Source: Thermodesulfobacteriota bacterium
GTDB lineage: Bacteria; Desulfobacterota_D; UBA1144; Nemesobacterales; Nemesobacteraceae
Direction: 5' to 3'
DNA: 64,000 bases
Assembly (NCBI GenBank): GCA_965263275.1
Contig: OZ253668.1
Span: forward strand, 1,855,329-1,919,328
Of the stretch, positions 9,875 through 43,487 are shown one piece after another. Made by a program: the position numbers and the translations under genes. Every line of letters begins with the position of its first letter. Position 1 is the stretch's first letter. The notes under the pieces are model-generated. The model was not told the DNA's origin. It worked only from the letters and a program-made list of their open reading frames with translations, and ran no database searches.

Positions 9875-10246
9875 TTCGGATCGGGCACGATAGCCTATCA
9901 TTAAACACACATTGTAAAGTCTCCATCGAATTTTCCATCGTTTTGATTAAAAGGACCGGGGCTGAAGGGCTCGTGTTCCTAGCCAGCTGTGGTGACAGTA
10001 CCAGAGAAGGAAAGGTACCCGTTCTTATCTCTTGAGAGGAAAGGGATGGGATGAAGGCACTTATATGGTTCTGTCCGCGGGCAGTTGGCGGAGAAGATGT
10101 ATTCGGGCCGTGGCTGTGTTCCTGCACATAGTTAATCATGAAATCCCCCAGAGTGCCTTGACTCTGAGCCGGTTTTGAGTTTAAAATAGAAACGAACGGT
10201 TGGTTGTTACTTGCTGGTCATTACAAAACTGGAAGGTTCCGATCAA

Positions 10247-10256
10247 GGGGGGGGGG
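10247..10256 (+). repeat. G10 homopolymer in the 5' leader of the SRCR gene
   Basis: Ten consecutive G by hand count, ending 22 nt upstream of the ATG at 10279 and just upstream of the AAGGAGG RBS. Confidence 0.85.
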
Positions 10257-10278
10257 TATAACTGTTAAGGAGGTCGAA

Positions 10279-11169
10279 ATGAAAGGAATAAGAGGCGTTG
10301 GAAAAACGGTTTTGATTATGGTGACCTTTTTTCTTTTTAGTTCTTGGAATGCCTTGGCACAAGACATAGATAATACGGTAGAGACTGTGTGGTCGGCAAC
10401 TATGACGGTAGGCAGCTTTACCGCCCGTGACGGCACGGTTTACCTCGGATATGAATCCGGCATATTCCTAGGCGATCTCACCGACAACAATTTCTCTTAT
10501 GAAGGTGTTAATTACCGAGTTAAGGGAATCGTGAAGCTCGGGGATAAGATGAGGTTAGATTTCCTTAATAATGAAGTGGGTTTCAAAACAGCATGGAACA
10601 GCTACAACAAAACTTTTTATCTGAATATCGGGGATTCCGTGCAGCTTGATTTCAGGGACCGGACCATTCCTAGTGCTGACGAAGATGAAGACTATGGATT
10701 GCACGAGGATGAGGTGCGGCGTGAATGGATAGGCCAATCCTCTTATGACTGGGCTGATGGTCAGGAAATCATTGTAAGCATAACTACCAAATATCTTGAC
10801 GGTGCTCTTAAGTTGCCTTTGGATTTGTCTCTTCAGAGCGGTACTGTGACAGCCGGGACAATCGGACGATTAAAGATATTTGATGACACCGATGGTGACG
10901 GCACTGGGCGGTGGAAAAGAATATGCGATGACAATTGGGGAGATGCGGACGCGGTGGTTGCGTGCAGCCAGTTAGGCCTCTCTGGGGGCAGTGCGAGAAC
11001 CGGGAATCAGAGTTCACACCTGAGCATCAGTACCGCGGAAACCTTCTTGCTGGACCAAGTGGAATGCGTTGGTACGGAAGACAGGGTAATTGACTGTCCT
11101 CATGATGGCCGTGACGTGCACGATTGCGCTGCATGGGAAATTGCCGGGGTTGAATGTACTTCCCCTTAA
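10279..11169 (+). CDS. Secreted protein with a C-terminal SRCR (scavenger receptor cysteine-rich) domain
   Basis: RBS AAGGAGG precedes the ATG. Signal peptide MKGIRGVGKTVLIMVTFFLFSSWNALA. The C-terminal ~100 aa (GRLKIFDD...GRWKRICDDNWGDADAVVACSQLG...LLDQVECVGTEDRVIDCPHDG...HDC...IAGVEC) follows the SRCR consensus. Confidence 0.8.
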   Translation: MKGIRGVGKTVLIMVTFFLFSSWNALAQDIDNTVETVWSATMTVGSFTARDGTVYLGYESGIFLGDLTDNNFSYEGVNYRVKGIVKLGDKMRLDFLNNEVGFKTAWNSYNKTFYLNIGDSVQLDFRDRTIPSADEDEDYGLHEDEVRREWIGQSSYDWADGQEIIVSITTKYLDGALKLPLDLSLQSGTVTAGTIGRLKIFDDTDGDGTGRWKRICDDNWGDADAVVACSQLGLSGGSARTGNQSSHLSISTAETFLLDQVECVGTEDRVIDCPHDGRDVHDCAAWEIAGVECTSP

Positions 11170-12016: not shown

Positions 12017-12664
12017 GTGACGGTCACACCGCTGGTAAAAGTAAAAAGGCTTATGGATGAACTTAAAAACCTGAGTCAGCAGGATCTCCAAGCCTTAAAA
12101 GAAAAATACGAATATACCTCAAGAGTCTTTCCAGACTCCGAATCGCTACTCGCTTTAGCTGAGGTCTATCTCGCACTTAGACAGGTAACAAAGGCCAGAA
12201 AGACTGTTTCCGATTTCACCCTTAACAAAGGTGATAGCAGCCGTGCGAGGTTTGTTCTCGCAAAAGCTCATCTTATGTGCTGGAATGCCACCGAGGCCGA
12301 GGAGGAACTTAGAAAAGCTCTTGAGCTTGACCCCCGCGACTCCCGAGCTTCCAAACTCCTTACCTACATATACAGAAGCAATGGAAAGATAGGTGAAGCT
12401 TTCAGGATTTCCTTGTTCTCTAGTCCCGGTTCGCTGAGCCAGGGAGAAAAACTACGAAAGCCCAGAGAACCTTCCCCCGCAGTGGAAAAAAAGAGCAAAT
12501 CACGAGCCGGGATTTTCGAAACTGAGACCATGCTTAATCTTTACGTCTCCCAAGGACTTTACGAAGACGCTCTCAAGATAGCTGAAACTCTCTGCGAAAT
12601 TGAGCCTGATAATCCCGCTTACCACCGCCGTCGTGATGAGATAAAGATCCTTATTGGCCAATAG
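12017..12664 (+). CDS. TPR-repeat protein
   Basis: Helical-repeat sequence ([70 protein letters not shown]). Start is GTG 12017 or ATG 12053. Confidence 0.7.
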   Translation: MTVTPLVKVKRLMDELKNLSQQDLQALKEKYEYTSRVFPDSESLLALAEVYLALRQVTKARKTVSDFTLNKGDSSRARFVLAKAHLMCWNATEAEEELRKALELDPRDSRASKLLTYIYRSNGKIGEAFRISLFSSPGSLSQGEKLRKPREPSPAVEKKSKSRAGIFETETMLNLYVSQGLYEDALKIAETLCEIEPDNPAYHRRRDEIKILIGQ

Positions 12665-12780
12665 CGAGGAATTTGGTTTTTCCGGGCGTAAAATCAACCT
12701 GGTTCCCATAGGCTTTTTGCGGCAAAGAACACTTGGTTGAAGCTAACCCAAGTTTACCAAGAAAACTCGTGAGTGGGACA

Positions 12781-15415
12781 TCAGGTCCATTTCTCTTCTA
12801 GCCGGGTTCTCCGCGAAATCGCAATCAGGGAAAGCATAATTAAAAGCAGGTTAAGCAGGGTGTTTTCCGGCATATTCCCCGCTCCCATATCCACAGCAAT
12901 CGCGCATCCCCCCCCCGTCTGTGGTTGTCGGTTGTTGCGTCTCTAATGGTGGATGCGACTGTTCTGTCGGTTGTTGCGGTTCTGATGGTGGATGCGACTG
13001 TTCTGTCGGTTGTTGCGTCTCTGTCGGTGGCGGCGGTGGCGGTGGTGGTGGTGGCGGTGGTGGCGGCGGCGGTGGTGGCGGCGGTGGTGGTGGCGGCGGC
13101 GGCGGAGAAGAAACATCGCCGAAGACCCAGGGACGGGCCTGCTTGATCGCCAGGATATTCTCGCTGGTGATCTTGAACTCTATTTCCATGGCGAACGGTT
13201 CATCGGCCGCGGGGTTGTACAGCCCCGCGAAGTGGTCATGGATCACTGTGAGGTGATCGCGCAACTGTATCAGTTGCGCGTCACTCATCAGGAGTTGCCC
13301 TGGCTCCACCAGGTTGGAGGTGGTAAGTACCCTGTATGTTCCATCCTTGTTCAACAGGATTTCCTCTGGCACCGAGAGCGCGTCGGGATTGGTGACCAGA
13401 TCCTCGCCGAGCTGCGTGTTGACGTAGTACCAGTCGTCACTGCCGGAGGTCAGGTCGGTCGGGTCAAAGCTGACGGCCACCCCGTTGGCCAACTCGTCTT
13501 TGTAGTTGGGATGGACCAGCACCCCCATCGCCGCGGCCAGATGATCGATGCGATAAAACTCGCGCTCGGTGAAGGCCCGGAAGGTCCACAGGCTCGCAAA
13601 CACCCCCTTGAGGGACTTGTCGATGCCGTCCTCCACCGTCTCATCGGGATTCTGGGTCTTGGAGTCGTACAGGCCCGCCCCGTTAAAGCCCGGCAGGTCT
13701 TCGTTGTTCGTGCTTGATCGGTAGCGTAGTGATTGCCCCTCCGGATACGTGGCGTGCATGGTGGTCAGGGCGTCGATTATCCCCTGGGGCGAGTCCGCGT
13801 CCTCGATATCGTCGCGCAGATCGTCGAGCATGTCGTCCTGGACGTCGAAGTCCGTCTGGAAGTCTGGGTCAGCCAGCATGGTTTCAATGCGGGCATAGAA
13901 ATCGTGGGCCTTCATGAACTCGTCGTAGAAATAAAACGGGATCGCAAACCCGTCGGGAACCGTCCCCTCGGGAAAACCAAGTGTCCCCAGCACGGCCACA
14001 TTCGCTGCCTTGACGCCGAATGCGGTCCAGTCCTCAAAGCCGATCTCACTGAGGGGCGTGATCTCGGTGACGGAGAGATCCCGTTCCGGCGTTTGTTCTG
14101 TGGCGGGTCGGGAAGACTCGTAGTGCGCGTCGACTTCTGCAACCGTGGCGGCCCCTATTTCCCATCCGTTCTCTGTCACTTCATAGCGGACGTAACTGCC
14201 GATGAGGGGCGCGATGGCAGGGTCGTCGCGGATGTCCCGGATGTAGGCGTTGGGGATGCCGTTCTGCACGGCGCGCAGGTTGACGTGCGAGAGCGGGGTT
14301 TGGGGCACGGTCGAGATGATGCCGGCCACGCGGGGCAGTTCGTTGGGTAGGGCCTCGTAGAGCACGATGTCGCGCGGGTGGGGCCGGTCGTCCGGGTCCA
14401 GGACTTGCAGCCGCCCGACCCCTTCCCCCGGGTTCAACGCCAGGAAGTGGATGTTGGAGTAGACGTCCCCGTCGAACACGAGGTTGATGCGGGATTCCCG
14501 GTACAACGGCAAATCGGACTGGATATACGGAAGCTCATGGTTCCGCACATACAAGGCCAAGTTGTCTTCGAGCAGCGGCATGCTGGCGGCGAGCAGCGTA
14601 TGGGTACGCTCCATAAGGCTGAAGGAGAAAGAGTAGCGGGAGGGGAGTGTATTTAACGAGTAAAGGTAGACGCCTTGGCTGCCATCGGGGGCAACGCGGT
14701 TCTGCCTATAGGCGATCGTGCCGAGAATTACCCGCTGCCGGTTGATATGCCTGTCATCCAAGAAGGTTTGATGTGTAGGGTGCGTATTGGCGTTGATGAA
14801 ATAGACACGCGGTCGGTCGGTGTCCATGCCGAGCAGAGCGAACTTGAAGTATCCTCCTATGGCAAGCGCATCGTATGTGTGCGTATCGGGAACAGCCACA
14901 GCCCCGTCGTTCAGTGGAACGTCGGTGGCAGGGTTGACTGGGTTCATGGCCCCCAGATCATTGAGCTCGGTGATGTCGTCGACACAGTCGCCGTCAACGT
15001 CAGCGGGGTCGGCGATGAGGTACTTCTCCACCCGGTAGCGCTCCTTGGGCAGCGCATCCACGTTTTCGGCCAGCGTGGTCGTGCCGGCTTCACCGCGCTT
15101 GACCAGTACCGGAATATCCACGGTCGTGTCTGCGTCCACCTCATGACTCACGTAAAGCACGAAGTAGTCGGCGGTCGTGGAGTTGACCACGATGGGAACG
15201 GCATTAACCTCTACCGCCGTCGGCGTTGTGTTATAGCTGTTTCCTGAACACATCTCTGACTGCGGGTTGCCCTGCGCCTGTATCGGCATCGGGGTGGCCA
15301 GTAGCGTGGCGAGTGCCAGCAGCGCTCCCGGTGCCGCGCGGAAAATCAGGAAGCGGGCGAGGCTTGCAAGACGGGCGAAACGCCCCCGATAGGGCTGGTG
15401 GTACTTCCGACGCAT
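12781..15415 (-). CDS. Secreted PEP/pyruvate-binding (PPDK_N, ATP-grasp) domain protein, copy A, with polyproline stalk. The C-terminal sorting tail is out of frame because of a G9 tract
   Basis: Signal peptide ...LLATPMPIQA. PPDK_N motifs FGVKAANVAVLG..VPDGFAIP, LRYRSSTNNEDLPGFNGAGLYDS, MGVLVHPNY, NGVAVSFDP, EIEFKI...ILAIKQARPW. The ORF as given stops at 12851. With 8 G instead of 9 it reads ...DGGGCAIAVDMGAGNMPENTLLNLLLIMLSLIAISRRTRLEEKWT* and ends at 12781. Confidence 0.8.
12908..12916 (-). repeat. G9 (plus-strand C9) homopolymer inside the PPDK_N copy A coding region
   Basis: Nine C by hand count. It sits exactly between the PT-rich repeats and the anchor-coding tail. Confidence 0.85.
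12917..13105 (-). repeat. Coding repeats: ~2.7 copies of a 39-bp unit (13-aa QQPTEQSHPP[SL]E[TP]) plus an 81-nt (CCR)27 polyproline tract
   Basis: 39-bp units at 12946-12984 and 12985-13023, with a partial copy at 12917-12945. Uninterrupted CCA/CCG codons 13025-13105 (27 Pro by hand count). Confidence 0.85.
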
Positions 15416-15774
15416 GGCGTCATACCGCCCAGCATCCCTCGGCGCCGCCCATATCTTGGGCGGTGCTATATGAGGCTGTAGGAGAAACGATTAAAAAGAG
15501 TAAAAGGTTGGAAAAACTTTCATCCATCATGGCACTCTCTGGGTTGTCAACATGGACTAGTTTAAAAAATTGCACTATATCAATAACTTACCGTTCCTTC
15601 CTTCTCCGTCAAGCAAAATTTGATAGGACCGACCGTAACTTCTTTTGATTGACCTGCTTATAGTGTGACTGGTGTGATGGAGCCGTTACCCTCGGCTGGC
15701 TTTGGACAGGTAGCCACGTTGTCAAACAGGGAACTTAAGTCAATGCCTGCGAAAAATTAGAGTTGAATCTGAAG

Positions 15775-15990: not shown

Positions 15991-16114
15991 TTACGTCTCC
16001 CAAGGACTTTACGAAGACGCTCTCAAGATAGCTGAAACTCTCTGCGAAATTGAGCCTGATAATCCCGCTTACCACCGCCGTCGTGATGAGATAAAGATCC
16101 TTATTGGCCAATAG
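15991..16114 (+). pseudogene. Duplicated 3' end of the TPR gene, fused in frame to the aroQ fragment
   Basis: Identical to 12541-12664. The junction reads ...ggaatgcc|ttacgtctcc, giving a chimeric [11 protein letters not shown]. Confidence 0.8.
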
Positions 16115-16230
16115 CGAGGAATTTGGTTTTTCCGGGCGTAAAATCAACCTGGTTCCCATAGGCTTTTTGCGGCAAAGAACACTTGGTTGAAGCTAACCCA
16201 AGTTTACCAAGAAAACTCGTGAGTGGGACA

Positions 16231-16365
16231 TCAGGTCCATTTCTCTTCTAGCCGGGTTCTCCGCGAAATCGCAATCAGGGAAAGCATAATTAAAAGCAGG
16301 TTAAGCAGGGTGTTTTCCGGCATATTCCCCGCTCCCATATCCACAGCAATCGCGCATCCCCCCCC
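16231..16365 (-). pseudogene. Orphan anchor-coding tail of PPDK_N copy B, severed by IS110
   Basis: Identical to 12781-12915. It ends in a C8 run that abuts the IS110 left end. In the G8 frame it encodes GCAIAVDMGAGNMPENTLLNLLLIMLSLIAISRRTR... Confidence 0.75.
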
Positions 16366-16590
16366 GATACCCTTTATCCAAGCTTAATTTAGCTAAAATT
16401 TAAGAATCAAGTTTAATAGAATTCACGGGCCACTCGATCGAGAGCTACCTGCCCCCCCTGCGCCTCTGAGCGCCTACTGGGGACTTGTGCCTCGGTCGAG
16501 TGCCGTGATGAATGATGTCCAGTAGGAAGTTCGTGCCTCTGAGCACCTCCGTATCGGAGCAGACACACACATCACGGCAAACCCGATTTA
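16366..16590 (+). ncRNA. Candidate IS110 bridge/seek RNA region (left non-coding end)
   Basis: ~225 nt upstream of the transposase with long-range complementary arms (cacgggccactcgatcgag / ctcggtcgagtgccgtg; cctactgg / ccagtagg) and duplicated gcctctgagc(g/a)cc motifs. One loop region carries a C7 run. Confidence 0.35.
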
Positions 16591-31126: not shown

Positions 31127-32437
31127 TTAACCGTCCGAAAATGGGTCGGGGATATCGGGGTGCCAACGTGCGAAATGGTTTTTGTGTGCCTCCGTGTAAG
31201 CTCCGGGCGGGTAGTACTTATCGTAGAAATCCAGATCCAGATGATGGGCCTGCACCATGAATCGAAGGAACATGGGATCGGAAAAAGCCGGGAACCTCCC
31301 GTAAGTATCGTAAACGTAGTTGCAGATGTCCTTTACGACCTGAATTTCATCCTTGCTGGGTCTTTCGACCTCCGCAAGTACTCCGGCTGGATCCTTGTAG
31401 GGAAGCTTGTGCGATTCCCAGTTTGTCCATTTCATGTCGTTAAACGCCTCAACGGCTTCTCCCATGTCCTTGTAGTACGGCGGGCAGAACGACTGGAACA
31501 GGTCGTCTCTACCGACTGCCACGGGGTTTGGGTTTCCCGTGTCGCCCTGTATCTTGGGAGTGGCGAACCGAAAACCCAGTCCCCTGTGAAAAGGGGTTCC
31601 GCCGAGCATGAACATGCTAGCGAATCCGCTGAAAAGCCATCCCCCGAGACCCAGGGTCTGAAGCGCCAGGACCATGTTCTGTCCCATAAAGGCCTGCTCT
31701 GCGATGTAACCGTTGGCGAAGCGAAGCTCTGCCTCGACAAGAGGCATTCTCTTCGACTTGTCAAGAAACCCTTTTTCAAGCCACTGCGCGGTTCCGGGAG
31801 GCCTGAGCCTGTGAAGCTCATCGACGAAGTTAAACCTGTGATCCGGTCTCATGTAGAAGAAATAAAGATTGATTATGCATGCCGAAAGATCGGTTACCGG
31901 CATGAACACAGTAGTTCCGGGCTTGTTCACGTTCCAAAGATTATGGGCGGCGATTCCCGGAGGCTTTGACGGCAGATCGGCCCTTCCGTCAGAAAGCTTG
32001 ATCTTGCATTCGCGGAACAGTTCAAGTATCCGGTCCACTCTCTGGTGGCGGGTCATTTTCTCAAGACCTTCAAAATCCTCGGCGCGGCGGTCATGCATCT
32101 TTATCATGTAGAGCCCCTCGTCGTTCGTGTAGAAAAGCTCCGTCCTGTGCACGTCCCCGAGGGCCGGAATCGTCTTGCTCGTAAACTGCATTTCAAGGTC
32201 AAGACCCACGTGCGGGGGGAAATCCGAGAGATTTATGTTCTTTATGCCGAGGCCGGTCCACACCAGCATGGCTTCCTCAAGTTCAGATAGCGGGACGGGG
32301 TCGTGCTTGGACTTATATTGGAGGGGTCCCCTTTCGATTTCCATTCCAAGACCGAAGCGCCGGGACCTTCTCTGAAAAACAGCGTCGTAAAAACCGTGGT
32401 TTATGGCGTGATCAAGACCTTCTGGGTATTTGCTCAT
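31127..32437 (-). CDS. Nitroreductase-superfamily protein with a SagB/ThcOx-type dehydrogenase-like domain
   Basis: RRSRRF motif, KTIPALGDVHRTELFY...EGLYMI and AEQAFMGQNMVLALQTLGLGGW are nitroreductase/SagB-like. AGGAG RBS sits 8 nt before the ATG at 32437. Confidence 0.55.
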   Translation of the reverse strand: MSKYPEGLDHAINHGFYDAVFQRRSRRFGLGMEIERGPLQYKSKHDPVPLSELEEAMLVWTGLGIKNINLSDFPPHVGLDLEMQFTSKTIPALGDVHRTELFYTNDEGLYMIKMHDRRAEDFEGLEKMTRHQRVDRILELFRECKIKLSDGRADLPSKPPGIAAHNLWNVNKPGTTVFMPVTDLSACIINLYFFYMRPDHRFNFVDELHRLRPPGTAQWLEKGFLDKSKRMPLVEAELRFANGYIAEQAFMGQNMVLALQTLGLGGWLFSGFASMFMLGGTPFHRGLGFRFATPKIQGDTGNPNPVAVGRDDLFQSFCPPYYKDMGEAVEAFNDMKWTNWESHKLPYKDPAGVLAEVERPSKDEIQVVKDICNYVYDTYGRFPAFSDPMFLRFMVQAHHLDLDFYDKYYPPGAYTEAHKNHFARWHPDIPDPFSDG

Positions 32438-32481
32438 GAAAATTTCTCCTTGATTTGGTTTCTCCGCTTGCGCGGACAAGT

Positions 32482-33030
32482 TCATTCCTCCTCCTCGGAA
32501 TCAGATGGGGTCATAAGTCTCATGTATTCATTTTCCGTGACTATTTCCAGCGAACTCTCGACCCTGTCAAGAAATACCACTCCGTTTATGTGATCGTATT
32601 CGTGCTGGAACACTCTGGCTGTAAAATCCGCGAAACTGCTTTCCACGAGATTGTTGTCCCTGTCCCTGTAGGTCGCGCGGACGGACTTATGTCTCGGTAC
32701 GAGCGCCCGGATTCCCGGGATGCTAAGGCATCCTTCCCAGTCTTTTTCCACATCGTCTGATACAGAGACTATTTCGGGATTGATTATCACTTTGGTCTCC
32801 GTTTCCGGGGCGTCGGGGTAGCGTGGACTCACGGTTCCCGCGATTATGAAAATGCGAAGAGACTCGGATACCTGAGGAGCGGCGATTCCGGCGCCGTTTG
32901 CTTCTGCGGCTGTGAGAATCATATCGTCAATCAGTTCCTGGATTTCCGTGTCGCTTATGCTCTCGACGCTTTCGGCTTCTTGCCTGAGCACGGGGTTTCC
33001 CAGTTCGGTGATTTCACGTTGCTGCGCCAT
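32482..33030 (-). CDS. def: Peptide deformylase
   Basis: GIAAPQV, EGCLS and QHEYDHINGV motifs. Confidence 0.93.
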   Translation of the reverse strand: MAQQREITELGNPVLRQEAESVESISDTEIQELIDDMILTAAEANGAGIAAPQVSESLRIFIIAGTVSPRYPDAPETETKVIINPEIVSVSDDVEKDWEGCLSIPGIRALVPRHKSVRATYRDRDNNLVESSFADFTARVFQHEYDHINGVVFLDRVESSLEIVTENEYMRLMTPSDSEEEE

Positions 33031-40978: not shown

Positions 40979-41806
40979 TCAGCCGGATGTGTCGCTTTCG
41001 GTGGCGAACTTCGCGGGTCTTCCCTGTTTTTTCTTCTGTTCCATGGCTTGACGGCGTCTGTAGCTCTCCACGTTCATCTCAAGTATCACGCAGTGATGCA
41101 CAAGGCGATCCACCGCTGCCACCGCGGTGTTTTCGTCAGGAAACACCTTTGTCCATTCGGTAAACGGCTGATTGGCGGTAATGAGCACGGAACGTTGCTC
41201 ATAACGGACCGATATCAGTTCGAACAGCACGCTTGTTTCGGCGTGATCTTTGCGCACGTAGGCCAGATCGTCAAGAATCAGCAGGTCGTAGCGGTCAAGC
41301 CTGTTGAGCATGTTCTCAAGGGACAGTTCCCTTTGAGCCGTCTGGAGCTTCTGAACAAGATCCGTCGTACGGGTGAACAGCACCCGTTTCTCCTTCTCCA
41401 CCAGAGACAAGCCGATTGCCGAAGCCAGATGACTCTTGCCCGCCCCCGGAGGGCCGAAGATTATCACATTGTGTCCGCCTCTTAGCCACGAATCGTTTGA
41501 AGCCAGGGCCATGACCGTGGGTTTGGATATAGTGGGAACCGCGTCAAAGTCGAAGTTCTCAAGGGTTTTTCCTGGAAGAAGACGGGCTTCGCCCAAGTGG
41601 CGGCGTATCCTGCGCCGCTGCCGCTCGGCAAGTTCAAGATCCGCGAGAGTTGCGAGCAGCCGGGCCGCGGGCCACCCCTCGGTATCCGCCCGTTCGGCGA
41701 ACCGCTCCCACATCTGCCTGATCGCGGGCAGCCGAAGTTCGCGGAACATGAGGTCAAGGTCGGCTTTTCCGATCTCCACCACCTTTTCATTGGGTTTCGT
41801 ATTCAT
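40979..41806 (-). CDS. istB: IS21 helper ATPase IstB
   Basis: Walker A GPPGAGKSHLA, Walker B LLILDDL. Confidence 0.92.
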   Translation of the reverse strand: MNTKPNEKVVEIGKADLDLMFRELRLPAIRQMWERFAERADTEGWPAARLLATLADLELAERQRRRIRRHLGEARLLPGKTLENFDFDAVPTISKPTVMALASNDSWLRGGHNVIIFGPPGAGKSHLASAIGLSLVEKEKRVLFTRTTDLVQKLQTAQRELSLENMLNRLDRYDLLILDDLAYVRKDHAETSVLFELISVRYEQRSVLITANQPFTEWTKVFPDENTAVAAVDRLVHHCVILEMNVESYRRRQAMEQKKKQGRPAKFATESDTSG

Positions 41807-43305
41807 CTCTGTCCTCCCGTTTCAAATAAAGAGCCGTAATTGTCGAGGCGGCCTCTATGGACGTCGACTCCGGGCATAGGCCCCGTTTTCACCGTGAACC
41901 GTTCTTTGAGCTCATCGATGTCGGGAAGTTCTCCCACAGAAACGCATTTCCCTATCGCCGAAGCCAGCTGGGCTTCGCAACTGTAATCATGGGCCAGAGC
42001 CAGAAGCTTTACCGCGACTCCGCATGCCTCCCGCCCCGAGAGAAGTTCAACAGCAAGCTCAAAACAACGCTTGTACTCCTCCCGGGGAAACAGCTCATCA
42101 CGGTAAACCAGATTCATAAACGCCCCCGGCTTGCGCCGAAGCGAATGAATCACGTGATGATAATTGACCGCGTAAGCCGTTTTCTCCGAAGATCCTCTTC
42201 TCCTGCGCTCAAGGGTAAGCAGATGACGGTCTCCCAGGTACAACTCTACTCTCTCATCGTAAAGACGCGCCGCGAGACGATGCCCTATGAGACGAGAGGG
42301 GACCGTGTAGAACACTCCCTTGAGCATGAAACCGCCGGAAGAAGTAACCCTTACGCTTTCACGCCGATAAAACTCCCCGTCCTGGGGCGGAAGAGACCCA
42401 AGCACCTTGCGCTCGGTCTCTATGCGCTCCACGCGCCGGGCGTTTAGACCGCTTAGCAGTTCCGCTATGAAGTCGCGGTAAGAATCAAGATCTGCAAAGT
42501 CCCGGGAACCCCGAAGCGCCAAAGCGTCCCCTATCTCCCTTTTCAGGTGACCGTGAGAACTCTCTATCGCCCCGTTTTCGTGGGCGACCCCGCGGTTGTT
42601 GCGCGTCGGCGCCATCCCGTAATGGGCGCAAAACTCCCTGTAGCTTGCGGTCATGTCCTCGACCTCGTCCTTGCTGAGATTGCGGAGAGCCGCCGAGAGA
42701 CTGTCGGTGCGGCACTCCCGAGGAACGCCGCCCAGCATCCCCAAAGCTTCGCTGAGACCCCGGGAGAAAGCGGCGAAGCTCTCCCCTCCAAGCACTGCCG
42801 TGGCGTGAACGAACCCCGACCAGGGGAGCCGGAAGTGATAGAGCTTGTGATCAAATCTCTTTCGGGCAATCGTGATCTCAAGGGAGTTCATGGTGGTGAA
42901 GTCGGAGATCCCCACGCGCCCCGGTTCCTTTTTCTGACGGAATATCACATCCTTGTCAGCGCCATGTTCAGCCCTCCATGCCTTTATACGCCTCTCAAGA
43001 GTCCTGCGAACTCCCGGGTCAAGCTGGGGATTTTCTCTCATTATTTCGCGGAACACCGCGACGGAACGTATATCCGGACAGTTCTTGAGAATGGGAACTA
43101 CCCGGGAATCGAAAATGCCATCCAGAGGATCGGGACGTCGGCTCCCCCGGGGCTTGTTTTTAGTTCCTGATTGCGGGTCCTTGGAGATTCGGAAACCGGT
43201 AGAGCGGCTGAAACCCGCTTTGGCAGCCGCGGTTTCCGTAGAACAAGTTTGTTTGAGCTTCATGAATTTCCTCCTTTGCTCGTCAGTTATATGTTGACCT
43301 GCCAT
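41803..43305 (-). CDS. istA: IS21 transposase IstA
   Basis: HTH N-terminus (MAGQHITDEQRRKFMKLK...) and a DDE integrase core. 4-nt overlap with istB. ATG at 43305 preferred over 43443. Confidence 0.9.
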   Translation of the reverse strand: MAGQHITDEQRRKFMKLKQTCSTETAAAKAGFSRSTGFRISKDPQSGTKNKPRGSRRPDPLDGIFDSRVVPILKNCPDIRSVAVFREIMRENPQLDPGVRRTLERRIKAWRAEHGADKDVIFRQKKEPGRVGISDFTTMNSLEITIARKRFDHKLYHFRLPWSGFVHATAVLGGESFAAFSRGLSEALGMLGGVPRECRTDSLSAALRNLSKDEVEDMTASYREFCAHYGMAPTRNNRGVAHENGAIESSHGHLKREIGDALALRGSRDFADLDSYRDFIAELLSGLNARRVERIETERKVLGSLPPQDGEFYRRESVRVTSSGGFMLKGVFYTVPSRLIGHRLAARLYDERVELYLGDRHLLTLERRRRGSSEKTAYAVNYHHVIHSLRRKPGAFMNLVYRDELFPREEYKRCFELAVELLSGREACGVAVKLLALAHDYSCEAQLASAIGKCVSVGELPDIDELKERFTVKTGPMPGVDVHRGRLDNYGSLFETGGQR

Positions 43306-43487
43306 CGTGAACCTCCCGCTCAATAGATTGAGCGGGGTTCTTACCCGGCCGGTCGTGAACACCGAAAGAAATTCAAAAAAATCTGGAGAGATGCTGTCTG
43401 AAACGGAAGGAGGGCGTAGCCCGACTGGAGTTTCAGACAGCATCTCCCCAGAGTCTCATCTTGTTTGTCGCAAAAGTCCTAAGTTGA

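Follow-up and report, generated by a model that had tools for sequence, protein, structure and literature searches.

Tandem genes encoding a putative exported, histidine-dependent dikinase-type phosphotransferase in a Thermodesulfobacteriota genome

What could an ATP-grasp domain do on the outer side of the cell? Enzymes of bacteria that require ATP are assumed to be intracellular, yet a 64,000-nucleotide stretch of the genome of a Thermodesulfobacteriota bacterium (contig OZ253668.1, positions 1,855,329 to 1,919,328; this whole stretch is called the window below) carries a gene, copy 1, whose product joins what looks like a complete dikinase apparatus to a predicted signal peptide, and in its relatives such an apparatus is exported systematically. 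An initial annotation, made from the letters of the sequence, had described copy 1 as an extracytoplasmic ATP-grasp protein with a polyproline stalk and a membrane anchor; a second gene, copy 2, was not part of it. On balance, we read the gene as encoding an exported, His-dependent phosphotransferase of the dikinase type, a surface “ecto-dikinase” that would use extracellular ATP. The reading is carried by the domain identities, the intact ATP-site residues, a conserved histidine, export and anchor signals found throughout the family, and purifying selection.

The C-terminal part of the copy 1 product is an ATP-grasp domain of the PPDK_N family. The Pfam profile (PF01326) aligns with aa (amino acids) 467-762 over profile positions 5-308 of 328 (E = 2.7e-20, 73.4 bits against a cut-off of 27), and copy 2 scores 67.5 bits, so that the family assignment made at first holds, and the motifs quoted with it (GVKAAN, RYRSSTNNEDLPGFNGAGLYDS, EIEFKI, KQARPW and the Asp-rich DPADVDGDCVDDITE) are all present. 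The NCBIfam models of phosphoenolpyruvate (PEP) synthase and rifampin phosphotransferase (RPH) match within their N-terminal ATP-grasp part (model positions ~6-241), scoring 59 bits where a full-length assignment requires 598 and 740, and in sequence searches of the PDB nothing beyond the nucleotide-binding portions of PEP synthases and RPH is matched. No match to the PEP-utilizers_C domain was found in copy 1 in the Pfam scans, in agreement with the earlier statement that the PEP/pyruvate TIM barrel is absent.

An AlphaFold2 model of the core, built from 60 homologues including members of 46-60% identity, has a predicted local distance difference test (pLDDT) value of 89.7 and a predicted template modelling (pTM) score of 0.84 (an earlier model from 41 close homologues, with a pLDDT of 50.5, was unusable and was discarded). 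Its best PDB neighbours in Foldseek are RPH (5hv1, E = 7e-14), PEP synthase (2ols, 8e-14), HpeI (9goj) and PPDK (1kbl, 4e-7). The top PDB matches span E values from 7e-14 to 2e-5 and all of them are ATP-grasp domains; searched as a whole against PDB and BFVD, the model gives ATP-grasp matches only. In RPH-Lm the residues Lys22, Arg117 and Thr136 position ATP, according to mutagenesis (PMC4844700). In the HMMER alignment to 5fbs, Arg117 falls on R566 and Thr136 on S585 (a Ser in place of the Thr); Lys22, of the GGK motif, corresponds to K469. Of 355 relatives, reaching down to 46% overall identity, 312-354 retain the motifs of the ATP site, EIEFK and KQARPW among them, and the ratio of nonsynonymous to synonymous substitution (dN/dS) between copies 1 and 2, 0.14 on the ATP-grasp domain and 0.21 on the putative carrier domain described below, indicates purifying selection. 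Judged by alignment and model, the ATP-grasp domain is real and its predicted ATP-contacting residues are intact, which answers favourably the structural check that the initial annotation had proposed.

Upstream of the ATP-grasp domain, a swivelling phospho-histidine (pHis) domain had been stated to be missing, and this is probably wrong. His377 sits in the motif TPLSHVNLRA, 92 residues upstream of K469, and none of the 355 relatives with a complete core lacks it. In the model, aa 340-430 run as three strands, a loop with the His at the N-terminus of a helix, the helix, a strand and a hairpin, which matches the order of elements in swivel domains. Weak but specific matches to the pHis domain of plant glucan, water dikinase (GWD) point the same way. 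The GWD1_pHisD profile (PF22973) was matched by 7 of 31 diverse members scanned singly (best E = 0.0023), no other Pfam family recurring more than twice among them; the window protein itself gave nothing with this profile at E ≤ 10. Aligned by hhalign to the pHis fragments of plant GWD, the family gives P = 0.0028 (P = 0.0034 with a broader family alignment of 96 sequences), His is placed on His, and none of 30 column-shuffled controls reaches the score. The canonical PEP-utilizers swivel domain had no Pfam match in the window protein at E ≤ 10, and a regular-expression search for the canonical swivel motif in the window and in 80 related loci found none. We consider it likely that the copy 1 product contains a carrier domain of the GWD type. 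In the 60-sequence alignment, one sequence has Met instead of His377 (TPLSMPNLRAL) along with other substitutions nearby; this member could be a naturally occurring pseudoenzyme.

The N-terminal region (~290 aa) is conserved as well, and no Pfam match was found for it in the N-terminal 437 aa of the window protein or in 16 diverse members, nor any match in the PDB by profile. In its Asp-rich loop, P137, D139, D141 and D147 do not vary across 60 sequences, and 299 of 355 relatives have the motif D.DGD(C/G)..D; the motif suggests calcium binding. The mature core has two Cys only, which, like the DxDxDG-type loop, would be in keeping with export. The α/β domain that follows the loop carries the conserved polar residues K191, Y205, H215, S308 and R309, which would fit a second active site, and no other part of the core varies as much. 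Between the two copies the α/β subdomain is 33-65% identical with a dN/dS of 0.55, while the flanking parts are 80-100% identical with a dN/dS of 0.14-0.23, and the copy 1 version is also found in four relatives (P0001, P0003, P0010 and P0042). This divergence amid conserved flanks, together with the recurrence, looks like cassette exchange and suggests that the subdomain is a recombinationally exchanged specificity cassette; by its dN/dS, its evolution is relaxed or diversifying. The mosaic stretch covers 14400-14880 against 19480-19960 (aa ~180-335 of the two copies), and P0003, P0010 and P0042 carry the copy 1 subdomain unchanged though they differ elsewhere.

The copy 1 product begins with eight Arg/Lys residues, a hydrophobic stretch of 15 residues and a PIQA/QG cleavage site, as described at first, and a comparable layout is seen in 118 of the 146 relatives whose core begins at most 140 aa into the protein. 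By a simple test of hydrophobicity and charge, the product is predicted to be exported by Sec; Tat may be the route instead.

The stronger argument for export comes from the family. A HMMER scan over 1.84 billion representatives (E ≤ 1e-30, clustering at 50% identity) returned at least 1246 protein clusters. The core of ~710 aa always matches as one unit, and it lies at the N-terminus, in the middle or at the C-terminus of proteins of up to 3769 aa, joined to fn3, cadherin, Calx-beta, PKD, DUF285, SLH and CWB2 domains, dockerin-like ends or transmembrane tails. The CWB2 and SLH partners occur in lineages of Gram-positive type, and arrays of fn3, cadherin, PKD and Calx-beta occur elsewhere. A uniform Bacteroidota branch of ~835 aa, 46-50% identical to the window protein, combines a signal peptide, the core and a type IX secretion system (T9SS) Por_Secre_tail. 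About 1800 Bacteroidota relatives have T9SS sorting domains; among the matches listed, Por_Secre_tail is present in P0251, P0260, P0265, P0266 and nearly all 120. Since independent lineages add their own device for export or anchoring to one core, the family provides strong evidence, drawn from domain architecture, that the module would function outside the cytoplasm. The extracytoplasmic location proposed at first is thereby supported more strongly than the single gene could have allowed.

The carriers in the Bacteroidota include the cultured Aureispira anguillae, Cryomorphaceae bacterium 1068, metagenome-assembled genomes (MAGs) of Saprospiraceae and a groundwater Bacteroidetes MAG, and the members are named by NCBI “PEP/pyruvate-binding domain-containing protein” or “hypothetical”. 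The idea of a sponge-specific family was rejected because this large branch has cultured and groundwater organisms. In A. anguillae (AP026867.1, locus L082, 7266-14116) the gene has T9SS-sorting-domain genes on both sides and a gene for a 2OG-Fe(II) oxygenase; the neighbourhood may be a small cluster of secreted proteins, and two other Bacteroidota genomes do not share it. Our literature searches found neither a paper describing the family nor a T9SS paper on such cargo.

How the window protein is held at the surface is less simple than first described. The span 12781-15415 had been taken as a single frame, but the open reading frame (ORF) of copy 1 ends with the TAA at 12851-12853. Read base by base, its 3' end runs from the 27 Pro codons (the polyproline stalk described earlier, longer in copy 2 and of 5 Pro upwards in relatives) through the Thr/Glu/Gln/Pro repeats and nine G to 18 further codons and the stop. 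The tail reads, out of frame, CAIAVDMGAGNMPEN followed by LLNLLLIMLSLIAI and SRRTR and ends at 12781; the “sorting tail” (GGGCAIAVDMGAGNMPENTLLNLLLIMLSLIAISRRTRLEEKWT) joins the ORF only after the removal of one G from the G9 run, so the claim of a membrane anchor does not hold for this gene as it stands. In three relatives (P0022, P0100 and P0121) the tail is in frame; it is therefore genuine for the lineage and disconnected in copy 1. The disconnection is due either to a real slippage mutation or to a homopolymer error.

Relatives end in three different frames at the poly-G (the third frame is that of P0005). The effective length of the run at the junction of linker and tail also varies, with G9 in copy 1, 5 + 8 G around an insertion sequence (IS) in copy 2, and other lengths in relatives. 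Behind the variable poly-G (12908-12916 and 16358-16365) lies either a phase-variable switch between an anchored and a released form or an assembly mistake in the homopolymer. Compared with the sorting-signal models of NCBIfam and Pfam, the copy 1 tail had no curated CTERM match, the only hit being JDVT-CTERM at E = 2.6; no exosortase was found among ~30 window ORFs scanned, and Por_Secre_tail was absent from the window protein in the Pfam scan. By eye, the tail resembles PEP-CTERM in having PE(N/S), a helix of hydrophobic residues and a cluster of basic ones; this serves as a lead only. ORFs of 90-240 aa on the opposite strand (12921-15648, +) overlap copy 1, some of them rich in Gly/Trp/Arg opposite the poly-Pro; they were rejected as genes, being shadows of a gene of high GC content at third codon positions (GC3) that recur opposite every family member in related loci.

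Copies 1 and 2 belong to a tandem segmental duplication. In copy 2, an IS110-family element is inserted within the G run, between linker and tail, with 5 G and 8 G at its junctions. Just past the displaced tail, 15991-16290 is identical to the 3' flank of copy 1 at 12541-12840 (300 nt at 100%, repeat D2), and the identical run downstream of both copies reaches at least 366 nt. With 3' flanks 100% identical, the duplication appears recent there, despite the 20% amino-acid difference between the coding regions. The repeat includes a duplicated 3'-end fragment of a TPR-protein gene (12017-12664, +). The relative P0001 ends in a nearly identical read-through peptide (LPTFYPALNLYI versus LPTFHQVLNLYI), so that a related element occupies this very site in a second genome. 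Transposase genes of the IS110 type are further found immediately downstream of family genes in the Cenarchaeum-labelled locus and near P0022 (L037, 13377-14510, and L081, 14790-16049), and elements of this type may target the gene region sequence-specifically.

Table 1. Positions in the window of the two gene copies, their parts and the inserted element.
Feature	Position	Strand	Description and basis
Gene copy 1	12851-15415	-	854 aa, ATG to TAA; ORF list and Pfam PPDK_N
Signal-peptide-like N-terminus, aa 1-47	15275-15415	-	basic n-region, hydrophobic APGALLALATLLATP, PIQA/QG
β-sandwich, aa 52-135	15011-15262	-	AlphaFold2 model, strands E22-89 in model numbering; contains Cys56
Asp-rich loop DPADVDGDCVDDITE, aa 136-150	14966-15010	-	calcium-loop-like motif of DxDxDG type; contains Cys144
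α/β domain, aa 151-339	14399-14965	-	AlphaFold2 model; proposed acceptor binding and second phosphotransfer site
Putative pHis carrier domain, aa 340-430	14126-14398	-	motif VAGIISTVPQTPLSHVNLRAVQNGIPNAY; His conservation, weak PF22973 matches, hhalign, model
Codon of His377, proposed phospho-carrier residue	14285-14287	-	conservation, alignment
ATP-grasp domain PPDK_N, aa 455-765	13121-14053	-	K469, R566, S585, E744/E746, Q759/R761
Linker of 27 proline codons	13025-13105	-	sequence reading
Thr/Glu/Gln/Pro-rich repeats, repeat family D1	12917-13024	-	TETQQPTEQSHPPSEPQQPTEQSHPPLETQQPTTTD; sequence reading
G9 homopolymer	12908-12916	-	point where the frame of copy 1 departs from the tail; three-frame translation
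C-terminal tail, out of frame in copy 1	12781-12907	-	CAIAVDMGAGNMPEN, hydrophobic helix of 17 residues, RRTR; three-frame translation
Gene copy 2	17938-20496	-	852 aa, 80% identical to copy 1; core intact, 3' end runs into the IS element
IS110-family element, 1.6 kb	16366-17977	+	Pfam DEDD_Tnp_IS110 and Transposase_20; transposase ORF 16591-17874
Displaced tail of copy 2, G8 run and tail	16231-16365	-	three-frame translation, junction reading

The nearest relatives of the window protein form an expanded clade that crosses phyla, its members being 60-92% identical across MAGs labelled as at least five bacterial lineages and as the archaeon Cenarchaeum. A scan of a genome collection gave at least 587 loci, and the best 80 lie in MAGs labelled Terriglobia/Acidobacteriota, Dehalococcoidia/Chloroflexota, Latescibacterota, Acidimicrobiia (Candidatus Poriferisodalis and Ca. 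Poriferisocius), Binatia and the archaeon Cenarchaeum. In these 80 loci the amino-acid identity to the window protein is 58-90%, and nucleotides agree at 71-82% over 2.1 kb, chromosomes labelled Dehalococcoidia and Cenarchaeum included. The flanks are non-syntenic, with the synteny to the window confined to the gene; tandem copies are frequent, and many loci have IS elements next to them. The two window genes have 60% GC and 78% GC3, against 51% and about 59% for their housekeeping neighbours (the dcw cluster, murJ, aroQ, recJ and others). Taken together, the identity across phyla, the non-syntenic flanks, the adjacent IS elements and the foreign composition indicate that the clade spread laterally among unrelated lineages. 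Its set of taxa is that typical of sponge microbiomes, and from the organism names we infer that the carriers are sponge symbionts. For sponge microbiomes, an enrichment and a lateral transfer of fn3 and cadherin genes have been reported (PMC8163846).

Some other features of the window are recorded here. At a distance of 1.7 kb from copy 1, a gene of 48% GC (10204-11169, +), a value below that of its surroundings, encodes a 321-aa protein whose start resembles a signal peptide and which ends in a scavenger-receptor cysteine-rich (SRCR) domain (Pfam E = 4.3e-16); SRCR is an animal-type domain, unusual in bacteria. A 546-aa ORF (41803-43443, -) with a C-terminal domain of Mu transposase (E = 1.2e-7) marks another mobile element, and a 452-aa ORF (31127-32485, -) has no Pfam match. 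A scan of the window with Rfam gave no RNA family.

The catalytic cycle that we propose is drawn by analogy with PPDK, PEP synthase, RPH and GWD. Sec export and cleavage of the signal peptide would yield the mature protein, which would be kept at or near the cell surface by the polyproline spacer and, in intact alleles, by the C-terminal hydrophobic tail. Its core would consist of three parts in the order known from GWD: an acceptor-binding N-terminal part (β-sandwich, Ca-loop and α/β domain), the His377 carrier and the C-terminal ATP-grasp domain. Mg-ATP would be bound by the ATP-grasp domain, and its β-phosphate would be attacked by His377 to give His377~P with the release of AMP and Pi. The carrier domain would then swing to the N-terminal domain, where the phosphate would pass to a hydroxyl group of an extracellular acceptor, most likely a polymer or a surface glycan of host matrix, prey or particles, with a specificity set by the fast-evolving α/β subdomain. 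Catalysis itself, the reliance on ATP from outside the cell and the kind of acceptor are inferred.

Several points weigh against this proposal. To our knowledge, ATP-dependent enzymes are not expected outside the cytoplasm, and a source of extracellular ATP has to be presumed. The signal-peptide call comes from a crude hydrophobicity test, and neither window copy has an in-frame anchor. The pHis assignment is built on sequence signals below threshold: no member attains the Pfam gathering score for PF22973, the family profile finds no pHis domain in the PDB at E ≤ 10, and a match to the canonical swivel domain was rejected after hhalign comparison with four PDB-verified domains (P = 0.24 and 0.16), although the better of these non-significant alignments still puts His on His. 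The structure search covered the model as a whole. Acceptor binding is assigned to the N-terminal domain from its position, and this domain has no known relative. Neither the 81 loci inspected in the sponge-type clade nor the three Bacteroidota genomes compared showed a conserved gene neighbour that hints at a substrate.

The alternative that best survives is a lone ATP-grasp domain that binds, senses or hydrolyses nucleotides outside the cell, as in the scavenging or quenching of extracellular ATP from the host, with no transfer to an acceptor. Binding or turnover of external ATP is plausible in view of the predicted intact ATP site, the pHis domain is backed by sub-threshold matches only, and a net conversion of ATP to AMP and 2 Pi is chemically possible by discharge of His~P to water, as dikinases can pass the phosphate of His~P to water. 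However, in every relative the ~400 aa lying upstream of the ATP-grasp domain form a single conserved unit with this domain, and a unit that combines a conserved His, set in a swivel-like element, with polar residues that do not vary in the N-terminal domain is hard to explain by nucleotide binding alone; moreover, simple phosphatases or nucleotidases achieve the same with far less machinery. The alternative is unlikely in our view, and because both the pHis domain and a conserved third domain appear to be present, transfer to an acceptor is likelier than mere binding.

The expected lack of ATP outside the cell would be solved if the protein were an effector that enters host cells (e.g. sponge phagocytes) or prey cells and uses cytosolic ATP on an intracellular target. 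The concentration of one clade in genomes labelled as sponge symbionts, close to eukaryote-like domains (the SRCR neighbour, the fn3 and cadherin fusions), would agree with such a role, as would the lifestyle of Aureispira, a predatory glider. We nevertheless regard it as quite unlikely: neither a translocation domain nor an injection-system signal was seen, the partners (SLH, CWB2 and the T9SS C-terminal domain) are adhesin or anchor domains typical of surface enzymes, and within giant surface proteins the module may stand at either end or in the middle.

If, on the other hand, ATP is not to be expected outside, the module could be catalytically dead and reused as an adhesin or ligand-binding domain, in line with its fusion to adhesion-type domains and with the single aligned relative that has Met for His. 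Pseudoenzymes usually lose the residues concerned, whereas here all classes of ATP-binding residues and the carrier His are kept down to 46% identity under purifying selection, which makes a dead module improbable. That the window copies are decaying pseudogenes (both are compositionally foreign, with the G9 frameshift in copy 1 and the IS110 insertion at the same spot in copy 2), or that the N-terminus is no signal peptide and the protein is cytoplasmic, is highly improbable, as the damage is limited to the last ~45 codons, both 770-aa cores are uninterrupted with a dN/dS of 0.14-0.3 between them, the G9 length could be an assembly error, and the secretion signals found throughout the family speak against a cytoplasmic role.

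We therefore retain the exported phosphotransferase as our reading of the gene. A broader proposal is put forward only tentatively: the family could comprise unrecognised extracellular, ATP-driven phosphotransferases that act on polymers or glycans as GWD does on starch surfaces, secreted by T9SS in Bacteroidota and passed between the bacterial phyla and ammonia-oxidising archaea of the sponge holobiont as modifiers of host matrix or recognition. If the module is active, it would represent a new extracellular chemistry, the phosphorylation of external polymers or small molecules paid for by extracellular ATP, and ATP would then be a usable currency of energy and phosphate in these habitats. 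It would also offer a molecular handle on the interaction of symbionts with the host matrix in sponges, where genes counted as “fibronectin/cadherin adhesins” may partly be such enzymes, and could inform on prokaryotic relatives of plant GWD. The cultured carrier A. anguillae makes the question directly testable. The fold and the class of chemistry are already known; as far as our literature searches reach, the systematic export, the GWD-like order in prokaryotes, the proposed, unrecognised acceptor domain and the ecological pattern (T9SS cargo and a laterally spreading symbiont clade) are new.

Compared with known systems, PEP synthase and PPDK share the PPDK_N domain and, as proposed, the general His~P swivel mechanism, but here the PEP/pyruvate TIM barrel is absent, the domain order is different and the protein is predicted to be exported. 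In the split aromatic dikinases (HpeI of Rhodococcus, 9goj, of the phenylphosphate synthase type) an ATP-grasp domain of PPDK_N type likewise phosphorylates a hydroxyl group other than that of pyruvate; those are cytoplasmic multi-subunit enzymes, whereas here all parts would lie on one exported chain. RPH (5hv1, 5fbs), the best structural match of the ATP-grasp domain, follows the three-domain logic proposed here, in which an acceptor domain peculiar to the family is combined with a His carrier that swivels. It differs in its order (ATP-grasp, RIF-binding and C-terminal His domain), in its cytoplasmic location and in its His domain, which is of the canonical PEP-utilizers type and has no significant match to the carrier region here. 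With regard to secretion, the Sec signal peptide and Por_Secre_tail of the Bacteroidota branch correspond to the layout that defines T9SS substrates (PMC12618676), in contrast to the window protein, which has a polyproline linker and a hydrophobic tail and no T9SS domain.

The comparison with GWD and PWD of plant and algal plastids concerns the layout as a whole. GWD is an intracellular (plastid) enzyme, whereas the family described here is exported and fused to anchors or adhesin domains; the CBM45 and CBM20 starch-binding modules of GWD have no match here (Pfam, in the N-terminal 437 aa and in 16 diverse N-terminal domains), the pHis match stays below the Pfam threshold and the N-terminal domain matches no known family. 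For GWD there is no solved structure for comparison, and in the potato enzyme His992 is essential (PMC12892837). Common to both are the order of acceptor-binding region, pHis domain and C-terminal PPDK_N ATP-grasp domain (the first two as proposed for the family here), and a similar His motif, LSHVNLRA here against LSHVSVRA in GWD fragments (P0275 and others). GWD, moreover, works on the surface of an insoluble polymer, which is the type of acceptor that we propose for the window protein.

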